A DNA stretch of 64,000 nucleotides from Thermoanaerobaculia bacterium (GTDB lineage Bacteria > Acidobacteriota > Thermoanaerobaculia > Multivoradales > JAIOJS01). The stretch covers positions 13,334 through 77,333 of the forward strand of contig JAUIDB010000010.1 in assembly GCA_030429235.1 (NCBI GenBank), read 5' to 3'. Positions 2,689 to 43,309 of the stretch are shown in pieces. The position numbers and the translations under genes are program-made. The notes beneath the pieces were generated by a model. That model was not told the origin of the DNA, did no database searches, and was given only the letters and a program-made list of their open reading frames with translations. Position 1 is the first letter of the stretch. The number at the start of each line of letters is the position of its first letter.

Positions 2689-3672
2689 CTACTTGCGAGG
2701 GGAGGCCTGCAGAACCGTGTTCAGTACCCCGTCGACGACGGTAGCCATCCGTTCATAGTCCAGCGTGTCGGCAGTGTCCGAGGACGTGTGGTAGTTGGGA
2801 TTCCTCATGAAGGCGGTGTCCGTCACCATCACAGCGTCGTATCCGTTGCGCCAGTAGTTGCGGTGGTCGGAAGCATCGATCCCCATTACCACGGGTCCGT
2901 TGAAGCTGAAGACTGGGATGGTGGAAGCGCCTCTGAACGACTTCTTGGCGTGGGCGGTGAGCCAGGCGTCTTCTGAGCGACCCACCACGGCGATGAAGTT
3001 CCCGTGGTCCGGGTAGAAGAGATCCAGGATCCAGCTGGGCCATGGCTGCTCGTCGACGAAGTAGCCGATCATCTCCAGGTTGATCATCCCCCAGATCTCC
3101 TGCTCCTCGGCGCCCAATAGGTCCGCGTGCACTCGGCTCCCCATGAGTGGGGAAGCGTAGAAGGGCGGCTCTTCCAGGGTGAAAGCGACCAGGGTTACCG
3201 GGAGCTTCGGCTGGGTGGCGCCGAGCAGCCGTGCTAGCTCCAGAAGGCCGGCCGTGCCGCTCGCATTGTCGTCAGCCCCTGGGAACTCGCCAAACAGAGT
3301 GAAGGCATCGTAGTGGGCTCCCACCACGACTCTGGGTCCCTCGTGCGGTCCAAACTCGGCGATCACGTTGTGGTAGTCGGATCCGTTCGCCGGGAAGGTC
3401 TGAAGGCGTACTCGGTCCGAGTACTGCTCGAACAGATCGGCGATGTAGTTGGCGGCTCGGGCGAGATTCTCCGGGTTGTCGCTCCCTCTCGGTACGACCT
3501 TCGTGGTCAGGAAGCGAGTGTGGGCCTCTAGAAGGTCAGCCCGCGCCCGATCGTGGGTCAGATCCTCGAAGTGGCCGAGGGAAGGCCGGCGGAGCACGAA
3601 GCAGGCGGTCGCGAGGAGTGTGAGCGCCAGGATTCCGGCAATCGTGAGGATTCGTAGTAGGCGGCGGAGCAC
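2689..3672 (-). CDS. M28-family Zn aminopeptidase, membrane-anchored or secreted
   Basis: GTG start with a signal-anchor, 'VVVGAHYDAF', and 'GADDNASGTAGLLELARLL' metal-binding motifs typical of peptidase M28. Confidence 0.8.
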   Translation of the reverse strand: MLRRLLRILTIAGILALTLLATACFVLRRPSLGHFEDLTHDRARADLLEAHTRFLTTKVVPRGSDNPENLARAANYIADLFEQYSDRVRLQTFPANGSDYHNVIAEFGPHEGPRVVVGAHYDAFTLFGEFPGADDNASGTAGLLELARLLGATQPKLPVTLVAFTLEEPPFYASPLMGSRVHADLLGAEEQEIWGMINLEMIGYFVDEQPWPSWILDLFYPDHGNFIAVVGRSEDAWLTAHAKKSFRGASTIPVFSFNGPVVMGIDASDHRNYWRNGYDAVMVTDTAFMRNPNYHTSSDTADTLDYERMATVVDGVLNTVLQASPRK

Positions 3673-3934
3673 ACTGGTTCTACGCTGTGGCCGAGAGAAC
3701 CGTCCAACGTGTGAGTTTCTGGCCGGACCGCGGCGACCGCGGGAGTTCCTGTCTCACCAGACGGACCATTGTGCGGTTTGCGAGCCGGCTCGATAGCAAC
3801 TGATGAAGCTCCCCACTGACTGAGGGCAGTTCCTGCTCGTGCTTCAACTGCTTCTTTGGGTTCGAGGCGAGTGGAGTAGGCGGAAGTGCAGCCGGTGCTT
3901 GCTCTGCATTCGTCGAGACACTCGATGGTCCACG

Positions 3935-3950
3935 TGGCACGTCAGTTGCT
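3935..3950 (+). promoter_or_regulatory. Sigma-54 (RpoN) -24/-12 promoter candidate upstream of the Kelch-like gene
   Basis: TGGCACG-tcag-TTGCT matches the TGGCACG-N4-TTGC(A/T) consensus with correct GG-to-GC spacing. It sits ~123 nt upstream of the ATG at 4073 on the same strand. Confidence 0.55.
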
Positions 3951-4072
3951 CCTAGGACGATCGAAGCGCGCTGATCAGAAGGATGGTCCTCCACCGCGCG
4001 GACGCATCGATCCGATGCTCACACCAAGTTGTGCGGTGACCAAGAACGAATTGCTAACGAAGGGGAACAAAT

Positions 4073-5392
4073 ATGTTCAATCTCAAGAATCTAGTCATCG
4101 CGACGATTTGCCTTCTGGCGATCCCGGCTGTGCTGCCGGCGCAGTGGGTAATCAACGGTTGGATGCCGGCGGGCACGGTACCGATCGACTACCCGCCCAG
4201 TCCGTTCTTTGCTGCAAGCTACCAGGGACACCTGTTCGTAATGGATGGAGTGACCGCTTGGGTTGGAGAGGTAGACCCCTCGACCGGCAACATCCTGAGC
4301 TGGGAGGAAACCACGGCACCCGATCGGACCCAGTACCGAGCAGCTTTGGTGCCCACGAGTGCGGCCGTCGTGGGTGACTACATCGTGATACCCCATGAAC
4401 CCGAGTCGCTGGTCGCTCGGTTCAACAGCGACGGATCGATCGACGGGGACTGGCTTCCAGCCCCCGGACTCGTCAATGCAAGAGCCACGACCGGTGTTGG
4501 AGCGACCGCCGTGTCAGGCTCCTTCCTCTACGTCGTGGGGGGACATGGGCCCGGCTCGGCCCTGGGACGTGTAGAGGGAACTCTCGTCAACCAGGACGGC
4601 ACCCTGGCTCCCTGGCAAGACCTTGGATCCCTACCGGCCCCCGTGATCCTCCACGACCCAAGGGCTGATGTGATCGATGGCTTCCTCTACGTGTTCGGAG
4701 GAGAAGGAACGTCGCCTTCGGGCTCCTTGACCCACTCTCGGAACGTTCACCGGGCCCAGATTCAGCCAGACGGTACGCTTGGATCCTGGGTCAAGGTCGG
4801 TGACATGCTGCAGGCTCGCCCGCATGCCGGCCACCTGCTTGCAAACGGATCCGTCCATGTGGTTGCCGGCGGTGTTCACTCCTACATGACAAGTTCGGTG
4901 GAGTCAGCGACTCTTGCCGAGTTTGGGGAGACCGGGAGTCATATCCAGAACGCTCCCTTGCCCTACTCTCCGGGCCTCAACGAACTGGCTACGGCCGTAG
5001 TGGGGTCTTGGGGTTACGTCGTTGGTGGGAACACCCGACCGTTCGGTGGTGGTTTGGTTGCGGATGTTCTCGTCGCTCAGCTCGCACCCCTTTGCTCGGC
5101 CGATGGCGGCCCGTTTCATTTCGTTCGTCGACGTGGGAAGCCCAGGACAGAGTCTGCATCCTGGGTCGGATGCGGGGGCTCAGGGACGCTGCGGATCCTC
5201 AACAGCGGCACTTCTTCCGCGGTTGTTGTGCTCAACGGGGGCGAAGTAGCAGGGCCACAAGACTTCAACCCCAACGTGCAGGTCCTCGAGATTCCGATTC
5301 TGGACCTACCGACCGAGAACACCTTGGAGGTGACCATGAGGGGAGCTCCGGGTTCGAGTCTGCAGATCTCGTTCATAGCAGCAGGCTCTTGA
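4073..5392 (+). CDS. Secreted Kelch/galactose-oxidase-like beta-propeller protein (hypothetical)
   Basis: ATG with an AAGGGG RBS, a signal peptide (MFNLKNLVIATICLLAIPAVLPAQ), and repeated 'LYVVGG'/'LYVFGGEG'/'YVVGGN' Kelch-like motifs. The 5' end has locally lower GC. Confidence 0.6.
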   Translation: MFNLKNLVIATICLLAIPAVLPAQWVINGWMPAGTVPIDYPPSPFFAASYQGHLFVMDGVTAWVGEVDPSTGNILSWEETTAPDRTQYRAALVPTSAAVVGDYIVIPHEPESLVARFNSDGSIDGDWLPAPGLVNARATTGVGATAVSGSFLYVVGGHGPGSALGRVEGTLVNQDGTLAPWQDLGSLPAPVILHDPRADVIDGFLYVFGGEGTSPSGSLTHSRNVHRAQIQPDGTLGSWVKVGDMLQARPHAGHLLANGSVHVVAGGVHSYMTSSVESATLAEFGETGSHIQNAPLPYSPGLNELATAVVGSWGYVVGGNTRPFGGGLVADVLVAQLAPLCSADGGPFHFVRRRGKPRTESASWVGCGGSGTLRILNSGTSSAVVVLNGGEVAGPQDFNPNVQVLEIPILDLPTENTLEVTMRGAPGSSLQISFIAAGS

Positions 5393-5685
5393 TTCCGGCC
5401 CCTTCGCTTCAGTTGGCGAGCAAGACCACAGTAGGCCAGGGCGTCCTACTGTGGTCTTGGGCCTGATGATCGAGACTCTCTATCCAGGACCAGAGCTCCT
5501 TGGCTCGCCCGAAGTCGTACTGGGGCACCGGCGTCGGAGCCGGGCGCGTTCTTTGGGCGACGTTTCGGTCGCGATGAGCTTCGGTTTTGGGAGTAAGAAC
5601 AGGCGACGATCGTGTCACCGGAAGTGGCTGCAGGTCATAGCATGGCCAAACTAGGACCGAGCTGGATCATCACTCCTTGGGTTCG

Positions 5686-6804
5686 CTAGCCCGTCCTTGG
5701 CGACCTACGCGATGGTGAGATCGCGGCTGAGCTTGCCCGGAAGAAGATCAACGCCGAGAGTAGCGGGCCACCGAGTATGAGCATGAATCCAGAGAACGCC
5801 CTCACAGCCACGTTCTGAATACTGAGGTAGTAGTCCACGAGATGACTCGAGTATTGCCAGGCGTATTGGACCGTGGCGATCGCGATGAGGGCTGAGATAG
5901 CCGGTGCGGCATACCGACGGAGCCACTCTTGGCGTTTGAAGAATGCCGAGATGGGAGCCACTAGAACGGAAAACACCACCAGCATTACGGTCAAGGCCAC
6001 AGAAGCCCGAATCCAGAGGTTCATAACGCCCTTCTGGGTCAACAGGTCTCTCATTCGCTGGCTTTTGGCATGGTCTCGTGCTAGCTTGCCATCCAGGTCT
6101 CGAATGTTGACGTCAGCTCCCATGGCGATTAGTACTTCCGCTACCTGTGTGTAGTCCTCTCTGACCGCGGCCATCAACGGTGTAGTGCCGTCCTGTGCAG
6201 TCGCATCGACTTCGAGGTGTCTTCCGCTGTCTCCGATCTCGGTGAGGATTTCATGGTGACCCCGGGCCGCTACAAACCACAGTGGCGCCGCACCTTCAGG
6301 CCCACCTTTCAGGTTCAGGTTCGCACCGCCGCTGACGAGTTCCCGGAAGACCTCCAGTCGGCCCCGTTTGGCAGCAATGACGAGGGGTGTCTCTCCAAGG
6401 CTGTTTCTCGTGTCGATGTCTGGCATCCTGTCTTGAGCTAGGAGGAGCCTCAGGGTCTGCGTATCTGCGTTTCTTGCGGCTACGTGTAGGACAGTGTCTC
6501 CTGGGGCCATTTCCACAGAGTCGCCTGCTCCCTCAGGGACACGAAGAAAGGCGTCGGCTCCGTTGGCAAGAAGAAGTCGTGCTAATCCGGTACGGCTTCG
6601 GGAGATCGCCCAGAGCAGGGCTGAGATGCCCTCTCCATCCAGTTGGTTCGCATCGCCGGTGTTGGCCAGAGCCGAGAAGAGTTCCTTGACGTTCCCGGAC
6701 TTGGCTGCGGAGACCAGTTTCCCCTCGTTCGCCGCCGCTTGGCTGCTTGCCACGGTAGTCGCAGCCAGCACAAGAGCCACTTTTCCAGCTATACCGAGAT
6801 TCAC
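5686..6804 (-). CDS. Ankyrin-repeat protein with a C-terminal multi-pass membrane domain
   Basis: Signal peptide, then at least five ANK repeats ('GISALLWAISRSRTGLARLLLANGADA', 'GDTVLHVAARNADTQTLRLLLAQ', 'GETPLVIAAKRGRLEVFRELVSGGANLNL', 'GTTPLMAAVREDYTQVAEVLIAMGADVNIRD') and about three C-terminal TM helices. GC is lower than in the flanks. Confidence 0.8.
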   Translation of the reverse strand: MNLGIAGKVALVLAATTVASSQAAANEGKLVSAAKSGNVKELFSALANTGDANQLDGEGISALLWAISRSRTGLARLLLANGADAFLRVPEGAGDSVEMAPGDTVLHVAARNADTQTLRLLLAQDRMPDIDTRNSLGETPLVIAAKRGRLEVFRELVSGGANLNLKGGPEGAAPLWFVAARGHHEILTEIGDSGRHLEVDATAQDGTTPLMAAVREDYTQVAEVLIAMGADVNIRDLDGKLARDHAKSQRMRDLLTQKGVMNLWIRASVALTVMLVVFSVLVAPISAFFKRQEWLRRYAAPAISALIAIATVQYAWQYSSHLVDYYLSIQNVAVRAFSGFMLILGGPLLSALIFFRASSAAISPSRRSPRTG

Positions 6805-7619
6805 CGAGACTCACCCTTCCGAGACAGTTCGAGTTGAATTGATTGGAGTGACTCCCCAGTTCCTGCTAGGAAGCGAGATACCGCCTGCTTTTTTTCTGGC
6901 CGGAGATCTAGGGTTGCCGGACAGAGCCTCTTCTTCGTACAGCTGATACGGGATCGTTCCCACTCGTCTATGGATTGCGCCAACTCGAGCAGTCGAAGCG
7001 CTACGGTTTCTCGCTGTCGTTCGTAGCTATCGATTCTGTGAGACAGGGTGTTCTCGGTCCGTTCGGTTGTCTCCCGGACCGCAGTGAGTTCCTTTTTCGT
7101 CTCATAGAGCTGTTCGAGTGTTTCGTTGGCTTTGGCTTGCAGGTCCACAAGTTCGTCCTCGACGGTTTGTATGTGCGCCCCGACCCCAGCGAGTAGAAGC
7201 TCGAAACTCGTACGGATTTCCGAGCGCACTTCGTCGTCGTAGTTCTGAAGCTGCCCCTCCACTTGACGAAAGACCTTCTCTCGATGATCGTTAAAGGCGC
7301 TGGGAATTTGGTCTACGTACTGCATCACCTGCTCGTTGAGTTCGAGGTGTCTACGCACCAGATCGTCGTGTTCACTCCGAAGTACTGATAGCTCGACTTC
7401 GTGAATCCGGAGTTCCTTCCGGAGGTCGGCCGTCAACTCGTTCGCTCGCTGAAGCTGATCTGAACAGCCCTGGCCTTCGGACCTGCATCTCTTGAGATCC
7501 CTTTCGCAGCAGGCTGCGGTGCCACTGATAAGAAAGACGAGCAGTAGCCGAGTCGGCAACGAGCGGCTCCGGCGGTGGAGGCTCCTTTCAGATCGAACCA
7601 TCATGGATTCTTTGTCCAT
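6801..7619 (-). CDS. Coiled-coil lipoprotein (hypothetical), probably co-transcribed with the ankyrin gene
   Basis: ATG at 7619 with an AAGGAG RBS and a signal plus lipobox-like 'LISGTAAC'. A long heptad-rich coiled-coil region follows. There is a 4-nt overlap with the downstream ankyrin gene. Confidence 0.6.
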   Translation of the reverse strand: MDKESMMVRSERSLHRRSRSLPTRLLLVFLISGTAACCERDLKRCRSEGQGCSDQLQRANELTADLRKELRIHEVELSVLRSEHDDLVRRHLELNEQVMQYVDQIPSAFNDHREKVFRQVEGQLQNYDDEVRSEIRTSFELLLAGVGAHIQTVEDELVDLQAKANETLEQLYETKKELTAVRETTERTENTLSHRIDSYERQRETVALRLLELAQSIDEWERSRISCTKKRLCPATLDLRPEKKQAVSRFLAGTGESLQSIQLELSRKGESR

Positions 7620-7684
7620 CCGATCTCCTTCTTCCGAGGCCTTCTCGGGCGGCCTTCACAAAACAACTCGTGGGGCCATGGATC

Positions 7685-7700
7685 TGCAAGGCCCGGGCCA
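7685..7700 (-). promoter_or_regulatory. Sigma-54 -24/-12 promoter candidate for the coiled-coil/ankyrin operon
   Basis: The minus strand reads TGGCCC-gggcc-TTGCA, ~65 nt upstream of the ATG at 7619. GG and GC spacing is correct, but the match sits in a GC-palindromic context and could be chance. Confidence 0.35.
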
Positions 7701-7820
7701 AGCCCTCCCGGAGGCCTGGGTATGTCTGGACGCGATTTCCGGCGCGACCCCGAGTGCAAGCAGGTGAAGAGACTGGCTGTGGACGTTGCTAAGCTAGTGT
7801 CTACCCGTGTCTCTCGGAAG

Positions 7821-10577
7821 ATGCGCGCTCCTGACACAATAGGGCCAGCAATGAACAGAGACGGGGATCAGGGTGTCCCATCGGTTCCGAGCCCGGCCCT
7901 AGCAGCCGGAGCCACCTTCCGCTCCCGCTACGAGATCGTCGAACGGCTCGGTCAGGGCGGCTACGCCGAGGTGTACCGGGCTCAGGATCTAGAGATCGAT
8001 CGCGAGGTCGCCTTGAAGATCCTGCGGCCGGATCGGACGAGTGACGCTTCGGTACGCCGGCTGAAGCGGGAGGCGGCGGTGGCCCGGGATGTGGAGAGTC
8101 CTCATCTGGTTCGGGTCTTCGAGGTGGATACGTCGACTCTGCCGGCGTTTCTCACCATGGAGGTGGTGGAGGGGGGCAGCCTGCTGGAGGAGATCGCGGC
8201 GGGCCCGGTGCCGATCGAGCGGGTGCTGGAGGTGGCGCGGCAGGTACTCCTCGGGTTGGAAGCGCTGCACGGAATGGGGATCCTGCACCGGGACATCAAG
8301 CCCAGCAACGTGATGATCACGTCGGACGGCCAGGTGAAGCTGGCCGACTTTGGGATGGTCCACCAACTCTCGCGAGAGTCGACGCGGCTGACCGAGTCTT
8401 CGGCCATCGTGGGGACGATCGACTACGTGGCTCCGGAGACGGTTCTCGGCGATCCGCCCGACGGTCGAGCCGATCTCTACGGGCTCGGGTTGTTGCTGTT
8501 CGAGATGCTCACGGGGAGCCTGCCCTTCGGTGACTCCCCTTCGGCTCTCGGCGCTGCGTTGGAGCGCCTGCACCGATCACCGCCTCGGGTGGTACCGCTC
8601 CGACCAGAGACCCCCCGTTGGCTAGAGAAGGTCGTCCTGAGGCTCCTCGAACGACGTCCGGAAGACCGTTTCGCGAGTGCCGAGGCCGTGCGCCGCGCCT
8701 TGCGCGAGCATCGTGTGCCGCGATCTCGTCGGGTGTGGCGACGGAACGCCTGGCTGGCGGCGGGGATCGTGCTGGCCAGTGTCGCGAGCGCCTGGGTGCT
8801 GGCGAGGATAGGGGGATCGATCCCGGTCCTCTCGCACATCACGGCGCAGGAACCGGAGCCGGGCCTCTTCGGGCTCTCGGCTGACGGTGAGGTGCTGTGG
8901 CATCGGCCCGACCTGAGGTCCGGTTGGTGGGTCACTGCCCAGTCGAGTTCGGGGGGCGGACCGATTCCCCTCGGGTTGCGGGCCGGGGCCGGGCCACAGG
9001 ATCTGGAGGTGCTGCACCAGTTGCTGGTTCTCGATCCCACCAGCGGGGAGACGGTGGACCGAGTGACGCTGCCTTCGGCGGGAGATGAGTTTCCCGGTTT
9101 TGCACCGCGGTTCCAGCCGGAACTCCACGCGGTCGACATCGATGGAGATGGCGGCGAGGAGGTGGTGGTCACCTACTTTCACACCTACTGGCCCTCGTAC
9201 ACCGTGGTCTATGAACCCAGATGGCGCCGGGCGCGGGTGGCGCTGTTGGCGGCGGGGCACCACCGCCCGGTCGGCGTGGCCGACGTGGATTCTGACGGCA
9301 ACAACGAACTGATCTTCCTGGGAGTTTCGAACCGCATGGGTTGGTACGCTGGGCTGGCCGCAGTTTCGATGGTGCCTCCGATCAACCGGCCGGGAGAGGC
9401 GACGCTGAGTACGGCGGCGGCCACGACGCCGGACGGCTACTTCCTCAGGCGATGGCGGGGCATGGTTTGGTACGCGCTCGCTCCGCCCGGGATCTGGTGC
9501 TCCGGGATCGGCACCTGTACCGAAGTGGACCCCGATGCTCGTGAGATTCGCCTGGAACCCCCCGGCGGCTCGCAAGTGCGCTACTCGTTCGACGGGTACC
9601 TAGTGGAAGACCGGGTCTCCGGCCTCGATTCGGCGGAGCGGAACCGCCGCCGGGGTCGCGCCTACAAGCACCTGGAGGAAGCGGGGCGGCTGCTCGATTC
9701 GCGGCTCGAAGATTGGGGCGAGGAGGAGGCCGAGCGAGCGGTGGAGTTGGCTCGTACGGTCCGCGACCGCTTCCTTACCGACTGGGCCCTGCGCACGCTG
9801 GGGAGGATCGTGATCGAGCGCGGACGAATCGAGGAAGGAGAGCAGATCTTCGAACAACTCTCGGTCGACTCTCCAGCTGCTACCAGCGCCGCCTTCGAGG
9901 CCGCCCACGCGCTGCAATTGGCTGGCCGCCCGGATCGCTCTCTCGATTGGTACCCGCGGGCCTTCGGCGCCGCTGGGGACTGGGGACCGGGCCGCAGTCG
10001 CGACCGGCTGGTTCGGGGGTTGTTGTTGGCCTACAGCGAGATCGGTGACTACGAAGGAGCACAGAAGGCCCTCGACCGGTTCAGCAATCCCGGGCAGATC
10101 ACGTCGCGAATCGACACGTATCTGAGGCCCTACGTCGCCTGGCGGATGGAGGATCGATCCGTAGCCCCCATGCCCTACCGCGCGGGGAACCCCGATCTGG
10201 AGGTCTATTGGAGCCTCGAGCAGGCGCTGGCTCACGGTACCGAACTCGAAGTCCTTTGGGAACGGGTGCAACTCGCCATGGACCAGAGTTCGGAGGAATT
10301 GCCTTTGCTGCAGAATCTGGCCGGTGAGATCCAATGGAAGATGGGTCGCCGTGCGGAGGCTTTGGTCTGGTTCGAGAGGGCTTTCGCGGGAGGTGAAGCG
10401 GAGCTCGAGCGGAGTATCTCGGTCCGTGCCCACTTCGATCTGATCGTCAGCCGACTGCTGCGGGGAGTCCGCGACGCAGGCCTCGAGACCAGAAGCAGAG
10501 AGATCGCGAGCGTGGCGGAAGCCTGGGATTCTCATCAGCGGCAGCTGCGTCATCTCATGTCTGTCAGAGGGCAGTAA
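7821..10577 (+). CDS. Hanks-type Ser/Thr protein kinase with a TM segment, FG-GAP/VCBS-like repeats and C-terminal TPR-like region
   Basis: Kinase subdomains 'LGQGGYAEVYRA', 'VALKIL', 'HRDIKPSNVM', 'DFGM' and 'APE' are present. There is a TM segment after the kinase, 'DIDGDGGEEVVV'/'DVDSDGNNELIFLG' repeats, and a TPR-like C-terminus. The ORF opens at 7575 but overlaps the convergent gene. Start chosen at the ATG at 7821 (7851 is also possible). Confidence 0.8.
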   Translation: MRAPDTIGPAMNRDGDQGVPSVPSPALAAGATFRSRYEIVERLGQGGYAEVYRAQDLEIDREVALKILRPDRTSDASVRRLKREAAVARDVESPHLVRVFEVDTSTLPAFLTMEVVEGGSLLEEIAAGPVPIERVLEVARQVLLGLEALHGMGILHRDIKPSNVMITSDGQVKLADFGMVHQLSRESTRLTESSAIVGTIDYVAPETVLGDPPDGRADLYGLGLLLFEMLTGSLPFGDSPSALGAALERLHRSPPRVVPLRPETPRWLEKVVLRLLERRPEDRFASAEAVRRALREHRVPRSRRVWRRNAWLAAGIVLASVASAWVLARIGGSIPVLSHITAQEPEPGLFGLSADGEVLWHRPDLRSGWWVTAQSSSGGGPIPLGLRAGAGPQDLEVLHQLLVLDPTSGETVDRVTLPSAGDEFPGFAPRFQPELHAVDIDGDGGEEVVVTYFHTYWPSYTVVYEPRWRRARVALLAAGHHRPVGVADVDSDGNNELIFLGVSNRMGWYAGLAAVSMVPPINRPGEATLSTAAATTPDGYFLRRWRGMVWYALAPPGIWCSGIGTCTEVDPDAREIRLEPPGGSQVRYSFDGYLVEDRVSGLDSAERNRRRGRAYKHLEEAGRLLDSRLEDWGEEEAERAVELARTVRDRFLTDWALRTLGRIVIERGRIEEGEQIFEQLSVDSPAATSAAFEAAHALQLAGRPDRSLDWYPRAFGAAGDWGPGRSRDRLVRGLLLAYSEIGDYEGAQKALDRFSNPGQITSRIDTYLRPYVAWRMEDRSVAPMPYRAGNPDLEVYWSLEQALAHGTELEVLWERVQLAMDQSSEELPLLQNLAGEIQWKMGRRAEALVWFERAFAGGEAELERSISVRAHFDLIVSRLLRGVRDAGLETRSREIASVAEAWDSHQRQLRHLMSVRGQ

Positions 10578-10638: not shown

Positions 10639-12414
10639 ATGCTGCGTTTTGTCGCCCGGAACGAGGGCCAGGAGCGTCGATTTCCGATCGCGGCCGATGG
10701 CGTGTGGACCGTAGGCTCGGCGATCGAGTGCGAACTCTCTGTCCCCTTCGACGGGGTCTCGCGGCGGCATGCCAGCCTCGAGCGCCGGGGAAGCCGAGTC
10801 TGGCTCACGGATTGTGGTTCCAAGAACGGCCTCAGGGTGGAGGGGCGGGTCGAGGCGCAGATCGAACTGCTGCCAGGGATTCGGGTAGACCTCGGTGGCA
10901 CGGTGGTCGAGATCGAAGAGGCAGCGTCGTCGGATACACGATTCGCGGTCGAGCTGCGGCGTTCGTCGAGCGTGGCTTCTCGACTGCGCACCAGTACGGC
11001 GGGAGCGATGGCCGGCGACGGACGTTCTTCACCCGCTGCCGCGCTCGCCTTCGTTCGGCGGTTCGAGCGAGCGTCGCTCCAACCGGGCTCGGAACTCTGG
11101 TCGCGACTCGTCGCCGAGACTCTGGAGATCCTCGAGGCCGAAACCGTGGCGGTGCTGCAGCGGGTTCCCGGGGAGCCTCGCGAGGTGTTGGAACAGTGCT
11201 GGGGCAGGCACCGGGTGCCAGGAGCCGAGGTAGAGGATCCGTGGAGCGCGGCCCAGCTCTCGGCCGAACTGGAAGGGGAATCGGCCAGAATCGTGGCCAT
11301 CCTGGGCCAGGGGGCCAAGGTCGATCGCTGGAAGGAGGACTTCTTCTCCTACCTGGCGACCCGCTGGCAGGAGCAGCGTCACGACCCTCCCGCTCCTCGC
11401 GCCCAGCCGGCCCAGGTCGAGCCGGAACGAGGCCCCGTGGTTCTCGGGCGCTCCGCCGCCATGGTAGAGGTCGAAACGCTGGCTCGGGCCGCGGCCGAGA
11501 GTGGTCTCAACGTCGTGCTCCTCGGCGAGACGGGGACCGGCAAGGAGGTTCTCTCACGCTTCATCCATCGTCTGCGTGCCACCGGGAAGGGTGAGCTGGT
11601 AGCGATCAACTGCGCTGCGATTCCCTCCGAACTCCTCGAAGCCGAACTCTTTGGCGTTGCCAGCCGAGTGGCGACCGGCGTAGATCCCCGCGAGGGGCTC
11701 TTCGTGCGCGCCCACGGGGGAACCCTTCTCCTGGACGAGATTGGCGAGATGCCCTACACGCTGCAGGCGAAACTGCTGCGAGCGCTCCAGGAGCGGGAGG
11801 TCATGCCGGTGGGAGGGCGACGGCCGATGCCGGTCGATCTTCGAGTCATCTCGACGACGCACCGTCCCCTGGCTCGGCTCGTGGCCGAGAAGAAGTTTCG
11901 CGCTGATCTCTACTACCGACTCCGCGGACTCGAGATCTGGCTTCCACCCCTCCGAGAGCGACTCGAAGACATTCCGGAGTTCGCCACTCTCTTTGCCCAG
12001 AGAGCAGCCCGTGCTTCGGGAAAGCGGGTCCGCGGGATCACCGAGCGTGCGCTGCGGCTTCTTACCTGCCACCGCTGGCCCGGCAACGTGCGGGAACTCG
12101 AGACCGACATGGAACGCGCTGTGGCGTTGTGTGCCGACGGAGGCAGCATCGACTCGCGGCTCTTCTCCCACCTGGATCCAGTCGCGGGACGACCTAGTTC
12201 CGTCTCGGTGCTCGAAGCCCCGACCTCGAGGGCCGTGGCGCCCAAGGCTGGCCACTCTACGGTCACACTGCGGGAGGAACTCGACGCTACCGAGCGCGAG
12301 CGAATCCGACGAGAGCTGGCGCTTTCGGGCGGCAACAAGTCGGAGGCCGCTCGAAGGCTCGGGGTGACCTGGAATGGGCTGGTGATGAAGATGAAGCGAT
12401 TGGGGTTACGGTAG
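10639..12414 (+). CDS. Sigma-54-dependent transcriptional activator (bEBP) with an N-terminal FHA domain and C-terminal Fis-type HTH
   Basis: ATG with a GGGGGAGG RBS. The FHA core is 'VGSAIECELSVPFDGVSRRHASLERRGSRVWLTDCGSKNGLRVEG'. The AAA+ sigma-54 interaction domain has a 'LLGETGTGKE' Walker A, 'GGTLLLDEIGEM', and 'FRADLYYRL'. The HTH is 'GNKSEAARRLGVTWNGLVMKMKRLG'. Confidence 0.85.
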   Translation: MLRFVARNEGQERRFPIAADGVWTVGSAIECELSVPFDGVSRRHASLERRGSRVWLTDCGSKNGLRVEGRVEAQIELLPGIRVDLGGTVVEIEEAASSDTRFAVELRRSSSVASRLRTSTAGAMAGDGRSSPAAALAFVRRFERASLQPGSELWSRLVAETLEILEAETVAVLQRVPGEPREVLEQCWGRHRVPGAEVEDPWSAAQLSAELEGESARIVAILGQGAKVDRWKEDFFSYLATRWQEQRHDPPAPRAQPAQVEPERGPVVLGRSAAMVEVETLARAAAESGLNVVLLGETGTGKEVLSRFIHRLRATGKGELVAINCAAIPSELLEAELFGVASRVATGVDPREGLFVRAHGGTLLLDEIGEMPYTLQAKLLRALQEREVMPVGGRRPMPVDLRVISTTHRPLARLVAEKKFRADLYYRLRGLEIWLPPLRERLEDIPEFATLFAQRAARASGKRVRGITERALRLLTCHRWPGNVRELETDMERAVALCADGGSIDSRLFSHLDPVAGRPSSVSVLEAPTSRAVAPKAGHSTVTLREELDATERERIRRELALSGGNKSEAARRLGVTWNGLVMKMKRLGLR

Positions 12415-26267: not shown

Positions 26268-27060
26268 GAGAAGGACACTCGATCTCGAGAAGGCTTTGGG
26301 AACCGAGGTGTCGAGGTATCGGGGCTGCCTAGACTAGTGTTCTAGGGGATTCCGGAATGCCGATGTTGATGGTTGTGGTTCTGAATGAAGATCCGTGCCC
26401 ACTGGTGTCGATGGTCGAGATCACGGAGCCTACCGAGCACGCCACGGTGGAGTAATCTGGCTTCTTTGAAGTGACTCTCGGAGAAGGGGTTGCCGTCCGA
26501 GGGGTGTGGACTCGATGTTCGCTCACTGAGCAGGTGCGTGCGTTGTCGGGTCCGCTGGCGTTTCTAGGGTCATGGGACAGCCATTGCAGTTGCTTGAACA
26601 CGCAATCGTTGAGCTGCGTCTCGTCGTGGTCTGGAGGCGGATTCCCTGGGCCTCTTGGGCCTTGACTCTGGCGACCCTTTTCGCGCTCTGGCCCCTCGTG
26701 GCGGCTCACAGCTCGAATCTCGGCGCCCCACCTAGCGATCGGGTTCGTCAGCTCCCAGACTCCACCATGGAAGCCGCGATCCAGGCCGGTTGTGGCTCGG
26801 CGGCCCCGTTGGAGTTCCGTCAGTCCCCGGGGTCGAAACCCGAGGTCACAGGGCCGCTCCTGCTCGCTGAGGGCCCCGAGCCGGTGCCCCGAGGCGTCAT
26901 CCTACTTCCTTGTCGGCGGGTTCCCCTTGACGGCCGCGGTCGGGGCTTCCATCGAGCCCATGGTGGAGGAGGCTCGTACCTGACCGACTCAGAGGTCTTC
27001 TCGTTGACGATGGTTCTTGAGGAACCGTGGTCGATTACTCAGGGCCAGGAGTCAGAGTAG

Positions 27061-34625: not shown

Positions 34626-35303
34626 TCAGCTCGGGGTCGGCGCGGAAGCCGGGGGCCACAGGTTGCGTCCCAGCTTGGTCGACAGCCACTCCAGGCCGCC
34701 GCGCCAGCCCGTGAAGCGAATCCCGGTCTCGACGCGGGCGAGCAGTACGCAGCCTTCGTCGGCTTCGGTGGCGGGTCGGTGGCTCGAACCCGCCTCGTAC
34801 CGCACGAAGTCGCCCGCCTCGACCAGGAGCTGGTCGTCGCGATAGCCGCCGGTGAGGACCAGGGTCTCCTCGGAGCCGAGGTGCTGGTGGGTCGGGAAAC
34901 GCCGGTCGGCACCGGCTCGAGCCGCCACCAGGAAGTACTCGTCCTCGCGGGCCAGAATCGCTACCTCCACCCCCCGAGTCAAAGGCGATCGCCAGCGCGG
35001 CGAACCCTGCCAGGGGAGGCTACCCGTCCGCCACTCGCGAGGTAGAGGCAGCCCGCCATCGGTGGTGCCCGGCGAGTCGTCGAGGCTCCTTGCCAGGCGC
35101 TCCCAGATCGTCGGTGGCGGCGCGGCTTCCCGAACTCCTTCGAGCCAATGCTGTCCGGGGGCTTGCAGCGCGTCCAGTTCCGAGCGGCAGGCGGCGCAGA
35201 GATCGAGATGGCAGTCGATCAGAAAGCGGCGCGGCAGGTCGACCTGGCCGGCGGAGTAGTCGATCAGTAGATCCGCAGAGGGGTGGTGGCGGGGGATCCT
35301 CAT
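34626..35303 (-). CDS. chrR: ChrR-type anti-sigma factor (N-terminal zinc-binding ASD plus C-terminal cupin)
   Basis: The anti-sigma domain 'HHPSADLLIDYSAGQ...CHLDLCAACR' carries the HxxxCxxC motif. A cupin-like C-terminal domain follows. It is immediately downstream of an ECF sigma with a 1-nt gap. Confidence 0.75.
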   Translation of the reverse strand: MRIPRHHPSADLLIDYSAGQVDLPRRFLIDCHLDLCAACRSELDALQAPGQHWLEGVREAAPPPTIWERLARSLDDSPGTTDGGLPLPREWRTGSLPWQGSPRWRSPLTRGVEVAILAREDEYFLVAARAGADRRFPTHQHLGSEETLVLTGGYRDDQLLVEAGDFVRYEAGSSHRPATEADEGCVLLARVETGIRFTGWRGGLEWLSTKLGRNLWPPASAPTPS

Positions 35304-35304
35304 C

Positions 35305-35844
35305 CTATCGATTCTCCAGGTGTTGTCTCAGTCGGTTCAGGCCGCTCCGAACCCTCGACTTGAGGGTGCCGAGAGGGAGCTCGAGACGGCGCGCCGTCTC
35401 CTCGTAGGTCAGCCCGCCGAAGTAGGCGAGCTCGAGGGCGCTGCGCTGCCCGTCGTCCAGCTGACCGAGAGCCTGTACCACAGCGAGACGGGTCTCGAGA
35501 GAGAGCCGCAAGGGTGGTTGGATCGGCTCCGATTCCAAGGCGCTGGTGGGACGACGTCCCTGGTAGCGCAGGCGATCGAACCACTTGTTGCGGGCGATGG
35601 TGAAGAGCCAGCCGGCGGCGACTCCGCGCCGGGCATCGAAGGTCGTGGCTCGGTCCCAGACGGCGAGAAAGACGTCCTGGAGCAGGTCGTCGACGTCAGT
35701 CTTCGCTGCACCGAGGCTGCTCAGGTAGGCGGCGATGCGACCGCCGTACCGCTCGTAGAAGGTCGCAAAGGCGTGGCGGTCGCCGCTGGCGACGCGTCGC
35801 AGCAGCTCCTGGTCATCGATCGTCGGTGTGGGCAAGGGAATCAC
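35305..35844 (-). CDS. ECF (sigma-70 family, group IV) RNA polymerase sigma factor
   Basis: Region 2 is 'DDLLQDVFLAVWDRATTFDARRGVAAGWLFTIARNKWFDRLR'. Region 4 is 'ELAYFGGLTYEETARRLELPLGTLKSRVRSGLNRLR'. GTG start. Confidence 0.85.
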   Translation of the reverse strand: MIPLPTPTIDDQELLRRVASGDRHAFATFYERYGGRIAAYLSSLGAAKTDVDDLLQDVFLAVWDRATTFDARRGVAAGWLFTIARNKWFDRLRYQGRRPTSALESEPIQPPLRLSLETRLAVVQALGQLDDGQRSALELAYFGGLTYEETARRLELPLGTLKSRVRSGLNRLRQHLENR

Positions 35845-37493: not shown

Positions 37494-38888
37494 CTAGGTC
37501 TGGTCGTCCTGCTCCGGTCGGGCAATGCCGAGACTGTTCATCTTCTGATGGAGATGGGTCCTCTGCAGTTCGAGCAGGCGGGCGGCAGCGGCCACGTTCC
37601 AGCCCGTGCTGGCGAGGGCGCGTCGGATGTGGCGGGCCTCGGCGATCTCCTTGAACCGGCGAAAGGGGAGTACGGGGCCGTCGAAGGGGTCGTCGCCATC
37701 GGCTCCGCTCTCAGAGGTCCGGGGATCGAGCATCTCGACCGGTAGCTGCTCGGGAGTGACGGGGTCGGTGCCAAAGACGACGAGCCGCTCGGTCAGGTTT
37801 TCGAGTTCGCGAACGTTGCCGGGCCACGGGTACTGTTCGAGGATCGGATAGACGGCCTCGGTGGCGGCGAGTTGGCGCACGCGGTGGCGAGTCCAGGCCC
37901 GACGGAGAAAGTGGTCGAAGAGGAGCCGGATGTCTCCGGAGCGCTGGCGCAGCGGAGGGACTTCGATCGGCAGGTGGGCGAGGCGGAAGTACAGGTCCTG
38001 TCGGAAGGACTGGTTCCGGATGCCCTCCTCCAGTTGGGCGTGGGTGGCGGCGAGGACCCGCACGTCGACCTCTCGGTCGCGGGTCTCGCCGATGCGGCGG
38101 ACGCGGCCGTCCTCGAGAACCCTGAGGAGGCGGGACTGTAACCGGTAGTCCATGTCGCCGATCTCGTCGAGGAAGAGGGTCCCGCCGTGAGCCTCTTCGA
38201 AAAGGCCCCGTTTGTCGCTGGCGGCGCCGGTGAACGCTCCCTTGACGTGGCCGAAGAGCTCGTCCTCGACCAGATCCTGCGGGATCGCGGCGCAGTTGAG
38301 TTTGATGAAGGGTTGGCGCGCCCGTGGGCTGCCGCGATGGATGGCGTCGGCCACGAGCTCCTTGCCGGTACCACTCTCGCCGAGGATGAGGACCCGACCC
38401 TCGGTCGGGGCCGCTTTGGCGATCGCCTCGCGGAGGGCCAGCATGGCCGGCGACTCGCCGATCAGTTCCGACTGGCCGCGCAGCTCGGACTCGAGGTCCT
38501 GGACCCGCGTTCTCAGGCTGGAGTGTTCGAGGGTGTTCTCGATCGATCGGCGGAGGCGCTCGGTACTGAACGGCTTCTCGATGAAGTCGTGGACGCCGAG
38601 CTTGAGGGCCTCGACCGTCTCGGCGATCGAGGCCTCCCCGGAAACGATGATCGTCGGCGGGAGACGATCCGACTCGGCCAGGCGTCGGATCAACTCGACG
38701 CCGCTCAGGCCGGGCAAACGCACGTCGACCAGCATCAGGCCCGGAGGGTTGTCGGGTCGGGAGTCGAGCCATTCCAGGGCCGCCTCGGCGGTGTCGGTGG
38801 CCGCGGCCCGGTGTCCCGCCTCTTTGAGCTGGAAGAGCAGGTTGGCGCGAATCCTCGGATCGTCCTCGACGACGAGAACCTCGATCAT
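37494..38888 (-). CDS. NtrC-family sigma-54-dependent response regulator (REC plus AAA+ plus Fis HTH)
   Basis: The REC domain has the phospho-acceptor in 'LMLVDVRLPGLSG'. 'ILGESGTGKE' and 'GAFTGA'/'ELFGH' are present. The HTH is 'GWNVAAAARLLELQRTHLHQKMNSLGI'. A 4-nt overlap with the upstream kinase. Confidence 0.85.
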   Translation of the reverse strand: MIEVLVVEDDPRIRANLLFQLKEAGHRAAATDTAEAALEWLDSRPDNPPGLMLVDVRLPGLSGVELIRRLAESDRLPPTIIVSGEASIAETVEALKLGVHDFIEKPFSTERLRRSIENTLEHSSLRTRVQDLESELRGQSELIGESPAMLALREAIAKAAPTEGRVLILGESGTGKELVADAIHRGSPRARQPFIKLNCAAIPQDLVEDELFGHVKGAFTGAASDKRGLFEEAHGGTLFLDEIGDMDYRLQSRLLRVLEDGRVRRIGETRDREVDVRVLAATHAQLEEGIRNQSFRQDLYFRLAHLPIEVPPLRQRSGDIRLLFDHFLRRAWTRHRVRQLAATEAVYPILEQYPWPGNVRELENLTERLVVFGTDPVTPEQLPVEMLDPRTSESGADGDDPFDGPVLPFRRFKEIAEARHIRRALASTGWNVAAAARLLELQRTHLHQKMNSLGIARPEQDDQT

Positions 38889-40114
38889 TCGGTACTCCGT
38901 GCGGACGGCGCCTCGGGTTCGGGCGGCGGCAGGGTGAGCTGGAAGGTGGCGCCGCCGGTCGAGCTCGAAACCAGTCGAAGGTCGCCACCGTGGTCGAGGA
39001 GGATCTTCTTGGAGATCGCCAGACCGAGTCCCATCCCCTCGCCGACGTTCCGGGTCGTCGTGTAGGGCTGGAAGAGGCTGTCACTCACCTGGGCGGCGAT
39101 GCCGGGGCCGTCATCGGCCACGTCGACCTGCACCTCGTGGTCGAGGCAGCGAACCTCCAGGGTCACCGACACCGAGCCCGGGGCCGCGGCGGCGGAACTG
39201 TTATCCCAGAGGTTCACCAGCACTTGACGCATCATGTCGCGGTCGATGTTGACGAAAGCGGGTCCGCTGGTGACGCACTGGAGGGAGAGGTTGTCCCAGG
39301 CATCCTGGTAGATCTCGGCGAGTTCGGCCAGGAGACTCGACAGGTCGACGCGCTGTAGCTTCGGCCGCGGCAGCCGGGCGAAGGAGCTGAAGCGGTGGGT
39401 GAACTCGGTGAGTCGATCCAGTTCCTGCCGGGCCCCGTCGAGGAACTCGTCGATCTCGGCGGCAGTGGCGCGAGGGTTCTTCTGCAGTGTGTTGCCCAGG
39501 CGAGCCAATTCGAGGCGCAAACCGGTGATGGGAGAGCGCATCTCGTGGGCGTGGCGTCGCGCTGCTTCCTGCCAGGCGGACAGGTTTTCGAGCATGGCCA
39601 GTCGTTGGCGGTCACCGGCCATGCGGCGCGAGGTCTCCTCGATCATGGCTGCGATCCTACCGAGGACGCCCCGCCCGCTCTCGCCCGTGTCGAGGACCGG
39701 TCGGCCTTCGGCGAGCCGACCGAGCGACTCTCGGAGCCGCTCGAGGCGGCGCTCGCGGTTCGTCTGGCGCCAAACCAGGCCGCCGGCTACCACCAGGAGG
39801 CAGAGGGCGAAGAGGGTGAGCCCGAGTGCCTCGGATCGCGCCACCAGGTCGGCTCGACTGCGCTCCAAGACCTGGAGTCGGTGCAGCGTCGATTCGATCC
39901 GATCGAATCGTTCGCGGTACTCGGCCGCTCGCTCCGGATCCAGCTCCGCCAGCCGCTTCTGGTCGTCGAGCGAGCCGGACAGTCGATCGAGTACCTCGGG
40001 GTGGGCGCCGAAGGCGAAGGAAGCCTGCGAGAGCTGTCGCTGTAGGACCTGAAAGAGGAGGGCCGCGAGCAGGATGGCTCCGAGCGTGGCGACGATCGGG
40101 GTGCGAAGCTTCAT
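38885..40114 (-). CDS. Sensor histidine kinase (HisKA plus HATPase_c), NtrY-like
   Basis: The H-box is 'HEMRSPITGLRLELARL'. G-boxes are 'DDGPGI' and 'GMGLGLAISKKILLDHGGDL'. An N-terminal TM helix is present. Start chosen at the ATG at 40114 just before the TM (40147 is also possible). Confidence 0.8.
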   Translation of the reverse strand: MKLRTPIVATLGAILLAALLFQVLQRQLSQASFAFGAHPEVLDRLSGSLDDQKRLAELDPERAAEYRERFDRIESTLHRLQVLERSRADLVARSEALGLTLFALCLLVVAGGLVWRQTNRERRLERLRESLGRLAEGRPVLDTGESGRGVLGRIAAMIEETSRRMAGDRQRLAMLENLSAWQEAARRHAHEMRSPITGLRLELARLGNTLQKNPRATAAEIDEFLDGARQELDRLTEFTHRFSSFARLPRPKLQRVDLSSLLAELAEIYQDAWDNLSLQCVTSGPAFVNIDRDMMRQVLVNLWDNSSAAAAPGSVSVTLEVRCLDHEVQVDVADDGPGIAAQVSDSLFQPYTTTRNVGEGMGLGLAISKKILLDHGGDLRLVSSSTGGATFQLTLPPPEPEAPSARSTE

Positions 40115-40800
40115 GGGCGCGGTGCCTTTTCGAGGCGCAGTGTCCATTCCAGATGCACCATGGGTCGACGGCGGATCGAGGTGCTGAGGAGTCCGTCGAA
40201 GACGCGGTCGAGAGAGCTCTCGCTGCGCTCGAGACGATCCTTGGACTCCGATTCGGCCGTACGACTGGAACGTACCGACTCGGCAAACCAACGCTGGGTC
40301 TCGCGCTGTTCGGCCGCCGAGAAGGGAACCACCTGGAGGCGCACCCGGAGGGCGGGAGGCGGGTCGTGGGCAAGAGCAGCCGCGCACAGTGGGACCTCGA
40401 GGTCGGACCACCAGCCCCGGAGGTCGGCGGGGTCGGCCAGGGTTCGGCGGGTGGTGCTGTCCGGAGTTCGGAAGGTGGTGACCTGAAACTGCTCCTCCCA
40501 GAGCTCGTACCGAATCTGGATCGTGGTCCGGGCCAGGGAGGCCTTGCGGTTCAGGGCCAACTCGAACCTGAAGTGCGTGGTCAGACCGGTCTGGAGGTGT
40601 CGCTCGATCTCGGGGTCATCCAGGATTTCGGGCAGCTGCGAGAGGAGCACACACTCCTCATTGGACCGAGAGAGCCGCGGCGGGTCGGCGGCCAAGGAGG
40701 AGCCCAAACAGAGGATCAAGCAGAGACCCCAGAATCCCCGAGTCGCGGGGCGACGAGGCAGGACCGACGACGGGGGCACCCGGTAGAGCAAAGGTCGCAC
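40111..40800 (-). CDS. Periplasmic DUF4390-like protein (the type commonly encoded just upstream of NtrY-like kinases)
   Basis: GTG start with a signal peptide. Its size (~230 aa) and position (overlapping the kinase start by 4 nt) fit DUF4390. The family assignment is from context and general features only. Confidence 0.45.
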   Translation of the reverse strand: MRPLLYRVPPSSVLPRRPATRGFWGLCLILCLGSSLAADPPRLSRSNEECVLLSQLPEILDDPEIERHLQTGLTTHFRFELALNRKASLARTTIQIRYELWEEQFQVTTFRTPDSTTRRTLADPADLRGWWSDLEVPLCAAALAHDPPPALRVRLQVVPFSAAEQRETQRWFAESVRSSRTAESESKDRLERSESSLDRVFDGLLSTSIRRRPMVHLEWTLRLEKAPRP

Positions 40801-40803
40801 CGG

Positions 40804-42336
40804 CTACTGCTTCCCTCGATCCAGGTAGGCCAACCGCAAGGAGACCACGCCCCATGGGCTGCGGAACGACAGACCGCTGCTGACCTCGAACCCCCGTTCG
40901 AAGTCGGGCGCAGCGGGAGAACCGGCGAACGAACTGCCGTCGAACAGGGTCAGGGCCTGGGTCCAACGCAGTTCCCGGCTCCCGTGCCGACGGCTGGAGT
41001 GTAGGAGTAGGCTGTGTTGGAGCGAAGCCTGCAGTCGCCACACCGTCGAACGACTCGATCCGAGGCCCAGTCCCGAAGGCGCGACGTCGTCCACCTTGCG
41101 TTCTCCGGCCAGGATCCGACCGGAGACACCCAGCGACTGCCGGGCACCGAACGAGCGGTGGAGTTCCCCTCCCAGTGAGAGGCCGAGCAGGGACGAGTCC
41201 ATCTCCGCCAGCGGGGTCGTGGAGTCGAGGAAGGAGCGAATCGGGCCGAGCCGCGCGGTCAGGTGCTGCCACTCGATTCCCGCCTGCAAGCGGGCCCCGT
41301 CGGTGGGGAAGAGGGGGTCGTCGACCGAGTCGAATCGCCACGCCAACTCCAGCCGCTGGTCCTCACGGTCCTCGAAGCCCAGGGTGCTCTCGACCACCGG
41401 AGCGACGGCGGACCGACGGATCCCGGAATCGCTCCGCCGCGCTTCACCGCGGAGGAGCAGGGAGTGGTTGCGCCGCAGGGGGACTCCAAGGTCGAGCCGG
41501 AACCGGGTCGTGCGTTCGCCGGCGCTCCAGGTCGAGGCCGTCGGGTCGAGGACGTCGTGGAGCTGAGTACGGCACTCACTGCCGGCCGCCGGGACCGCGT
41601 CGTGGCCGATGGCCGACTCGAGAGAATCCACGATCTGCTGCCGCACGTCCTCGCAGTGCACGGTCGAGACGCTGAGGGTGGCCAGGCCCCCGCGGCCGAA
41701 AGGGTCGTAGCGGCTGACCCCCGCGGTGAGTTCGCCATCCCCACTGACGACGCCGAACGCGACGAGGCTCGGGCCGAGAGCGAAACGCCGACCGGCGAAC
41801 AGGGTCGTTCCGTCGACCCGATCGGTGGTGGCCAGCCCGTCGACCGAGACGTCGTGGGCCCACCAGGTGGCCTCGGAATACAGGCCGAAGACCCACCTTC
41901 GGACCTCTTCGACCCGAATCTGCAGGTGGTACAGACCGCGGGAGGAACCCTTCTCGAGCGAGAACTCGGCGTCCAGGACCAGGGGGAGCCGGACGATGCG
42001 GGCCATGGCCTGGCCGAGCTGCGACTCGCTGTAGGCGTGGCCCTCCTCCAACTGTGCCGTGTTGAGGAGGCTGGTCGTCGACAGCAGGGAGATGCCGTCG
42101 ACGGCGATCGTCTCGATCGCGAACCGAGGGCCCTCCGGGGGCGGCGGGGGCGAGGCGGCGTGCGTGGCCGGCGGGGGAGGCTGGGCGCGTCCCGTGGAGG
42201 GGCCCACCGCGGATCCCAGGAGGAGAGCGAGGCCGATCAGGACGACCGGCCGCCTCCAGCTTCCGCGGAGCCGGTTGCGGTGTGGCGGAGCGGGCCGCGG
42301 GATTCCCTGCACAAGGCCTGGTCGTCGGGTTCTCAT
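40804..42336 (-). CDS. POTRA-domain outer-membrane beta-barrel protein (ShlB/FhaC/HecB TpsB-like or Omp85-family)
   Basis: Signal peptide, then a POTRA-like segment 'FAIETIAVDGISLL...LEEGHAYSESQLGQAMARIVRLPLVLDAEFSLEKGSSRGLYHLQIRVEEV'. The remainder is rich in predicted beta-strands. It lies 3 nt from the downstream DUF4390 gene. Confidence 0.5.
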   Translation of the reverse strand: MRTRRPGLVQGIPRPAPPHRNRLRGSWRRPVVLIGLALLLGSAVGPSTGRAQPPPPATHAASPPPPPEGPRFAIETIAVDGISLLSTTSLLNTAQLEEGHAYSESQLGQAMARIVRLPLVLDAEFSLEKGSSRGLYHLQIRVEEVRRWVFGLYSEATWWAHDVSVDGLATTDRVDGTTLFAGRRFALGPSLVAFGVVSGDGELTAGVSRYDPFGRGGLATLSVSTVHCEDVRQQIVDSLESAIGHDAVPAAGSECRTQLHDVLDPTASTWSAGERTTRFRLDLGVPLRRNHSLLLRGEARRSDSGIRRSAVAPVVESTLGFEDREDQRLELAWRFDSVDDPLFPTDGARLQAGIEWQHLTARLGPIRSFLDSTTPLAEMDSSLLGLSLGGELHRSFGARQSLGVSGRILAGERKVDDVAPSGLGLGSSRSTVWRLQASLQHSLLLHSSRRHGSRELRWTQALTLFDGSSFAGSPAAPDFERGFEVSSGLSFRSPWGVVSLRLAYLDRGKQ

Positions 42337-42412
42337 GGAGTCCGGACAGAGCCTCTCACAGGTTGCGCGGTGGCGCCAGGACGGCCCGCTCTCGCCACAG
42401 GGTCCATCCCGC

Positions 42413-43060: not shown

Positions 43061-43309
43061 GGTGTCTCCTGGTCGGTGGAAAGGGTTCGATGCCTCTGAC
43101 GACAGCAATGACCTTGCCAACCTCGGGGGCGGAGGGCTCGGGTGGAGCGATCCTGGCCGATCCGAAGGTTGAGAAGAATCGGGGCCGGTCGGCGCCTCGT
43201 GTCCGAGAGGGGCGAGTCGTTCGTAGCCACCGACGGTGGTGTCTGGGAAACCAGACGGTTCCGCACCATGGAGCCCCGGTCACTGCCCGTTGGAAACGGA
43301 GGAATCGTC

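Follow-up and report, generated by a model that had tools for sequence, protein, structure and literature searches.

A sigma-54 promoter candidate ahead of a predicted exported Kelch-type propeller gene in a Thermoanaerobaculia bacterium, and a nearby FHA-domain activator with a conserved non-canonical loop

Canonical sigma-54 promoters, such as glnAp2, pspA, and nifH, share the core TGGCACG-N4-TTGCW. The regulons of this sigma factor typically concern the exterior of the cell (PMC3162934). We found no sigma-54 regulon study for the acidobacterial phylum, to which the uncultured Thermoanaerobaculia-like bacterium examined here belongs, and a 2025 cross-phylum comparison of sigma-54 included no Acidobacteria (PMC12316311). 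Here we analyze 64,000 nucleotides of a Thermoanaerobaculia bacterium (contig JAUIDB010000010.1, positions 13,334 to 77,333; hereafter the window, with positions counted from its first letter). At 3935-3950 on the plus strand the window contains TGGCACGTCAGTTGCT, which reads TGGCACG-TCAG-TTGCT and has the same core and spacing as the canonical promoters. As in those systems, the site is intergenic, its leader would be about 110 nt long, activator genes lie nearby, and the target is predicted to be exported. Unlike them, it has no recognizable enhancer repeats or IHF site, and its target is an orphan Kelch-type propeller. Based on its sequence and setting, we propose that 3935-3950 is probably a functional sigma-54 (RpoN) promoter that drives the Kelch-like gene at 4073-5392.

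All 12 of the 12 specified consensus positions are matched by the element, and its GG (3936-3937) and GC (3948-3949) are separated by 10 nt, the canonical GG-N10-GC spacing. An earlier note on this DNA had described the motif as near-consensus; we find that it is an exact match, the only one for TGGCACG-N4-TTGCW in the window, where dinucleotide-preserving shuffles predict 0.01. When the window was scanned with a weighted matrix, for which we used our own approximate weights for the published sigma-54 consensus, the site scored 17.1 bits. It lies within a 400-bp gap from which an M28 peptidase gene (2689-3672, minus strand) and open reading frame (ORF) 4073-5392 (plus strand) diverge. The gene at 4073 is on the same strand as the site and begins 123 nt downstream of it (3950 to 4073), just as the earlier note had it, a typical distance. 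Position 4073 is the first start codon after the stop in its frame, and no earlier start is possible. Two further ORFs overlap the gap (3680-3994, minus strand; 3886-4377, plus strand), and both were rejected as real genes for want of a coding signature; the first is called as a gene only on a contig where the M28 gene is cut. The gap also holds AGCAACTGA (3795-3803), which is found 132 nt upstream of the -24 element and matches the -12 region TCAGTTGCT (3942-3950) exactly in reverse complement, as well as a related inverted pair at 3795-3809 and 3841-3855. Both are statistically at chance level.

The same weighted scan identified two other strong sites, neither of which is listed in the earlier note. 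Three sites rank far above the rest of the window (17.5, 17.1, and 15.9 bits), and 3 score at least 14 bits where 0.23 are expected in simulated sequence. The top-scoring site, TTGGCAAGGTCATTGCT (43104-43120, minus strand; 17.5 bits), is located 45 nt before the ATG (43060) of an outer membrane protein (OMP) beta-barrel gene. The third, TTGGCCCGGGCCTTGCA (7685-7701, minus strand; 15.9 bits), is 66 nt before the ATG (7619) of a coiled-coil lipoprotein-like gene and falls in the 102-bp gap before a kinase gene. We called a placement promoter-competent if it falls between genes and a gene on the same strand starts 20-200 nt downstream of it, which holds for 3.2% of placements. The looser pattern TGGCAC-N5-TTGC, with at most one mismatch, has 5 matches in the window and 3 of the 5 are promoter-competent (binomial P = 3e-4). 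Of all the evidence, this enrichment by position speaks most strongly for real sites. A fourth-ranked site, ATGGGACAGCCATTGCA (26572-26588, plus strand; 14.0 bits), was not counted: its ATG doubles as the earliest start codon of a 162-aa ORF whose N-terminus includes a hydrophobic stretch, and the match may belong to a promoter or to a coding start.

The genes behind the two additional sites point to the cell envelope. The coiled-coil gene (6801-7619, minus strand) overlaps by 4 nt with an ankyrin-repeat gene (5686-6804, minus strand) that has a signal-like N-terminus and C-terminal membrane segments; both were described from Pfam, translation, and gene calls, and the site at 7685-7701 precedes the pair. 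The site at 43104-43120 precedes a same-strand cluster (37494-43060, minus strand) whose members were assigned with Pfam. The cluster begins with the OMP beta-barrel gene (42413-43060, minus strand), continues with an Omp85-like gene (40804-42336, minus strand) and a histidine kinase gene (38885-40411, minus strand), and ends with the gene for an NtrC-type enhancer-binding protein (EBP), an arrangement that suggests autoregulation. Judged by these predicted targets, the proposal of the earlier note that sigma-54 controls secreted and envelope proteins here gains support.

A number of observations weigh against a working promoter at 3935. No significant enhancer-like repeat was found upstream of the site, where the only repeats are short and at chance level, and no IHF consensus site was found. 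The three promoters share no motif, and k-mer sharing between their upstream regions is at the null level. No orthologous locus is present in the collections searched, in which the sole contigs with the gene, L001 and L002, are the same sequence, and homologues with 42-44% identity (P0002, P0003) occur in other contexts without such a site upstream. There is also no rpoN gene among the genes of the 64-kb window; that sigma-54 is present in the genome is expected because a canonical GAFTGA activator is encoded in the window. Finally, a scan of 3500-5800 found no sigma-70-like site, but the scan also found no promoter for the divergent M28 gene, so its silence is weak evidence.

These gaps are what an explanation by chance would draw on, in which the match at 3935 has no function and the Kelch-like gene is read from a promoter of the sigma-70 or extracytoplasmic function (ECF) type that our scans miss in this phylum. 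Such an explanation can point to the absence of orthologous loci for comparison, to the lack of a detected enhancer or IHF site, to a sigma-70 scan that is insensitive here (the M28 gene being the case in point), and to the two ECF sigma factors with anti-sigma partners that are encoded in the window. Some selection was also involved, in that striking motifs were sought by eye in a single window. However, only 0.01 such matches are expected per window, and the 3935 site occupies one of the few promoter-competent positions, a property shared by the two other strong sites. We consider a chance match unlikely. Sigma-54 holoenzyme might also bind the 3935 site without producing an mRNA and instead obstruct or repress the divergent M28 promoter. 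Genome-wide binding studies in enterobacteria have reported sigma-54 sites with no associated transcript, which favors this idea, as does a gap that is shared with a divergently transcribed gene. Yet 263 nt separate the site from the start of the M28 gene, and it is oriented away from M28. Its placement suits the Kelch-like gene, whose ribosome-binding site is good; we regard this reading as very improbable.

If 3935-3950 is a functional promoter, sigma-54 RNA polymerase would bind its -24 GG and -12 GC in a closed complex that would remain silent until remodeled by an ATP-driven EBP. Transcription from sigma-54 promoters usually begins about 12 nt (11-13) past the -12 GC; this rule places the start near 3961 and therefore predicts a 112-nt leader (3961-4072, plus strand). 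The ribosome-binding site GAAGGGGA is found at 4059-4066, 7 nt ahead of the ATG. The product would be a single-gene mRNA consisting of the leader, this ribosome-binding site, and the coding sequence of the 439-aa propeller, and it would end at a 15-bp hairpin (5421-5459, plus strand). The hairpin (-33.8 kcal/mol, z = -3.35) is matched in folding by 0 of 200 shuffles and is probably a terminator between convergent genes. The leader itself folds no better than shuffles (z = +0.47), and there is no Rfam match in the window; on both counts we rejected a riboswitch or structured leader. In this model, we infer the presence of rpoN in the genome, the position of the transcription start, and the identity of the acting activator.

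The gene at 4073-5392 (plus strand; an ORF that gene calls on two public contigs also include) encodes a 439-aa protein that we predict to be an exported Kelch-type six-bladed beta-propeller. Its N-terminus (MFNLKNLVIATICLLAIPAVLPAQ) is hydrophobic and signal-like, and from this segment we infer export, in agreement with the description "secreted" in the earlier note. The description "Kelch-like" fares less evenly. The protein has no Pfam family at E<0.01, its best Kelch-type matches have E values from 0.047 to 6.5, and no named NCBIfam family reaches its cut-off for this protein (or for either activator discussed below). Models of NanM are the best Pfam/NCBIfam matches and are non-significant (E 0.04-0.05). 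Beyond itself, the protein has only two homologues above 40% identity (42-44%), which makes it nearly an orphan; the other nine (P0004-P0012) have 27-35% identity (E 6e-32 to 3e-7), and all carry Kelch Pfam domains. An AlphaFold model built on these twelve sequences (the protein and its homologues) has a pLDDT of 76 and a pTM of 0.72, with high confidence for residues ~25-340 and low confidence over the C-terminal ~100, including a C-terminal beta domain (341-439). In a Foldseek search of the PDB, the model matches the six-bladed Kelch domains of KLHL17, Keap1, and KLHL12 (E ~1e-13, probability 1.0, target TM ~0.73). On the strength of this model and the distant homologues, the term is right for the predicted fold but not for the sequence family.

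Which activator could fire the promoter is the harder question. Two sigma-54 activators had been reported at 10639 and 37494, and we find both in place, each with a Sigma54_activat AAA+ domain and a Fis-type helix-turn-helix in Pfam. The NtrC-type EBP (37494-38888; Sigma54_activat E = 1.1e-68) is encoded on the minus strand, a correction to the earlier description, and has an intact GAFTGA loop at residue 217. The other protein, which we call the FHA-EBP (10639-12414, plus strand; Sigma54_activat PF00158 E = 5.8e-54; HTH_8 E = 9.8e-8), has its Walker motifs (GETGTGKE and LLLDEIG) but is not a canonical activator. In a gapless alignment to the GAFTGA of ZraR, its residues 343-348 are RVATGV (ELFGVASRVATGV) where ELFGHEKGAFTGA is expected: the sigma-54-contacting Phe is replaced by Ala, and the Thr-Gly pair is retained. 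Upstream of the FHA-EBP is the gene for a Hanks-type Ser/Thr kinase (7722-10577, plus strand; 951 aa, start from the gene call; Pkinase E = 2.4e-49) with a kinase domain, a membrane segment, and an FG-GAP/TPR region, which is the presumed input to the FHA-EBP.

The RVATGV loop is neither an error nor a sign of decay. The closest relative of the FHA-EBP, from a Thermoanaerobaculia metagenome-assembled genome (68% identity), has GAATGV at this position, and [RGK][VIA]ATGV is present in 113 of 120 full-length homologues (P0013-P0132), whose named sources are mostly Thermoanaerobaculia and Vicinamibacteria. Because VATGVD is invariant across 31 aligned members of the subfamily, the loop is apparently under selection rather than decayed.

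We compared nine related FHA-EBP loci (L085-L088, L170, L006, L169, L171, and L172). A Ser/Thr kinase gene adjoins the FHA-EBP gene in 9 of 9, with a spacing of 9 nt in L085-L088. In these last four, the best sigma-54 match of each whole 14-20-kb locus is in the ~150-nt gap directly past the FHA-EBP gene; a large gene of the secreted type (Flg_new_2, fn3, or CBM96 domains) begins 43-45 nt after the match. The sites read (A/T)TGGAAYC-N4-ATTGCA, and in an alignment of the gaps the -24 and -12 bases are kept while the flanks have diverged. In L170, a site of 12.9 bits is located 30 nt ahead of the gene that comes after the EBP. As a control, a site of at least 12 bits within 300 nt downstream was found in 14% of 88 loci with canonical EBPs, compared with 5 of the 9 related FHA-EBP loci, four of these five being interrelated; the control loci came from a metagenome scan that was dominated by the generic WPGNVREL pattern and returned no RVATGV loci. 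Taken together, the sequences indicate that the association between FHA-EBPs and sigma-54 sites is real in part of the subfamily and not universal. The gaps after the FHA-EBP orthologues (L085 10560-10885, L086 10560-10880, L087 10600-10946, and L088 10590-10914) also share an inverted repeat, GCCAAGC...GCTTGGC, and GCCAAnCnACTGATCA, a motif that recurs ~45 nt ahead of the conserved -24 element; these elements may serve to bind an activator or may form the stem of a terminator. Two candidates for a shared enhancer motif, GCCAAnCnACTGATCA (taken from these orthologous gaps) and AGCAACTGAT, were rejected as neither is enriched in the window (7 versus 3.9 and 4 versus 1.55, respectively).

Homologues of the Kelch-like protein are found in contexts that touch on the same gene families. 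The closest, P0002 (44% identity; L003 5-3850), is encoded 46 nt behind a Flg_new_2/fn3 gene, where the contig ends. In L085, L087, and L088, a gene of this kind comes after the FHA-EBP. P0004 (L173 1529-8250) is a 749-aa lipoprotein-like protein encoded by the last gene of a kinase/hypothetical/Kelch operon. This operon diverges from the genes for an FHA-EBP with a canonical GAFTGA and for a 1441-aa kinase-nSTAND-WD40 protein. Two palindromes, GCAAGATTTGC and GGCAAGACTTGCC, occur in the intervening gap, in which no clear sigma-54 site was found.

The activator of the 3935 promoter cannot be assigned from sequence because no enhancer repeat or shared motif rises above chance and there is no IHF consensus. 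Provided that the promoter is functional, our leading candidate, named tentatively and at somewhat less than even chances, is the FHA-EBP, which is encoded 6.7 kb away and presumably controlled by its kinase. The FHA-EBP would then switch on both the 3935 promoter and the promoter at 7685-7701 in response to phosphorylation by the Ser/Thr kinase encoded next to it. We count in its favor the sites in L085-L088 and L170, the contexts of P0002 and P0004, and the precedent of DVUA0100 from D. vulgaris, which has a GVATGV loop and was predicted computationally to activate type III secretion operons at their sigma-54 promoters (PMC4641369). Against it, substitutions of the GAFTGA Phe mostly abolish activation (PMC7175178; PMC3162934), 4 of the 9 related loci (L006, L169, L171, and L172) have no adjacent sigma-54 site, and the positive loci L085-L088 are related to one another and so are not independent.

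Nearly as likely is that sigma-54 holoenzyme binds the 3935 site and a different activator fires it, either the NtrC-type protein (37494-38888) or one encoded outside the window, with the FHA-EBP being a sigma-70-type regulator like VpsR, TyrR, DhaR, and HupR. The NtrC-type protein has the GAFTGA that the FHA-EBP replaces with RVATGV, and EBP homologues whose loop is not intact depend on sigma-70 (PMC3162934; VpsR in PMC6158489; Caulobacter NtrC in PMC12421884); the related loci that have no nearby site fit this alternative as well. It is harder to reconcile with a VATGVD that is invariant in 31 members, with the conserved sigma-54 site beside the gene in L085-L088 and L170, and with DVUA0100. 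Moreover, the 3935 region and the promoter region of the NtrC cluster have no motif in common. Going beyond this locus, it is possible, though less likely than not, that RVATGV FHA-EBPs in general are genuine sigma-54 activators that dispense with the canonical Phe and are switched by a partner Hanks-type kinase through the FHA domain. They would then constitute a widespread acidobacterial module controlling secreted propeller and repeat proteins, with the 3935 and 7685-7701 promoters among its targets.

Several features of the surroundings deserve mention. The Kelch-like, ankyrin, and coiled-coil genes have a third-position GC of 0.61-0.68, compared with 0.76-0.87 for the flanking genes, and the region 3673-7721 has a GC content of ~0.58 versus 0.65-0.70 nearby. 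The stretch, bounded by the genes for the M28 peptidase and the kinase, may be an island that was acquired more recently. An RNA-repair gene pair encoding a Hen1 methyltransferase and Pnkp (kinase/phosphatase/ligase) lies immediately before the window (L001 356-4314). The two ECF sigma factor genes (34626-35844, minus strand; 54862-56246, plus strand) adjoin anti-sigma-like genes, which encode a ChrR-type cupin and a zf-HC2 protein.

The 3935 site itself is probably an ordinary sigma-54 promoter, a well-formed one that agrees with the view of sigma-54 as governing the cell exterior. Judged by sequence, the subject that merits follow-up more than the promoter is the large acidobacterial FHA-EBP subfamily, with its fixed RVATGV loop, its kinase partner in 9 of 9 loci, and its frequent proximity to a sigma-54 promoter. 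The locus offers a compact test system: a Ser/Thr kinase and an FHA-type activator with a conserved non-canonical loop are encoded close to two strong probable sigma-54 promoters. If the FHA-EBP does fire these promoters, the rule that requires the GAFTGA Phe would need qualifying, and a whole class would be lost to filters, like that of PMC3162934, by which such proteins are set aside as non-functional.

How the locus relates to known systems can be summarized from its proteins. The closest parallel to the FHA-EBP is D. vulgaris DVUA0100 (PMC4641369), which has the same xVATGV loop, co-localized sigma-54-type promoters, and export-related targets. The two differ at their inputs: DVUA0100 has an uncharacterized N-terminal region and no reported kinase partner, whereas the FHA-EBP combines an FHA domain with a Hanks kinase encoded next to it. 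Both assignments were made by computation only. The EBP homologues that work with sigma-70 (VpsR, TyrR, DhaR, HupR, and Caulobacter NtrC) resemble the FHA-EBP in having an AAA+ core without an intact GAFTGA. Their loop, however, is deleted or variable (PMC3162934), whereas that of the FHA-EBP has a fixed alternative sequence and often occurs beside a sigma-54-type promoter. Among exported proteins, the periplasmic sialic acid mutarotase NanM resembles the 439-aa protein as a bacterial six-bladed Kelch-type fold; the 439-aa protein has an extra C-terminal beta domain that is absent from NanM, and the match between them (E 0.04-0.05) is far below cut-offs. FHA-domain EBPs have reportedly been described in Myxococcus xanthus by Jelsbak, Givskov and Kaiser in 2005. 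These proteins are like the FHA-EBP in combining FHA, AAA+, and helix-turn-helix domains in a kinase-rich and sigma-54-rich bacterium, with Ser/Thr phosphorylation as the presumed input. The present subfamily is an acidobacterial one, recognized by its RVATGV loop.

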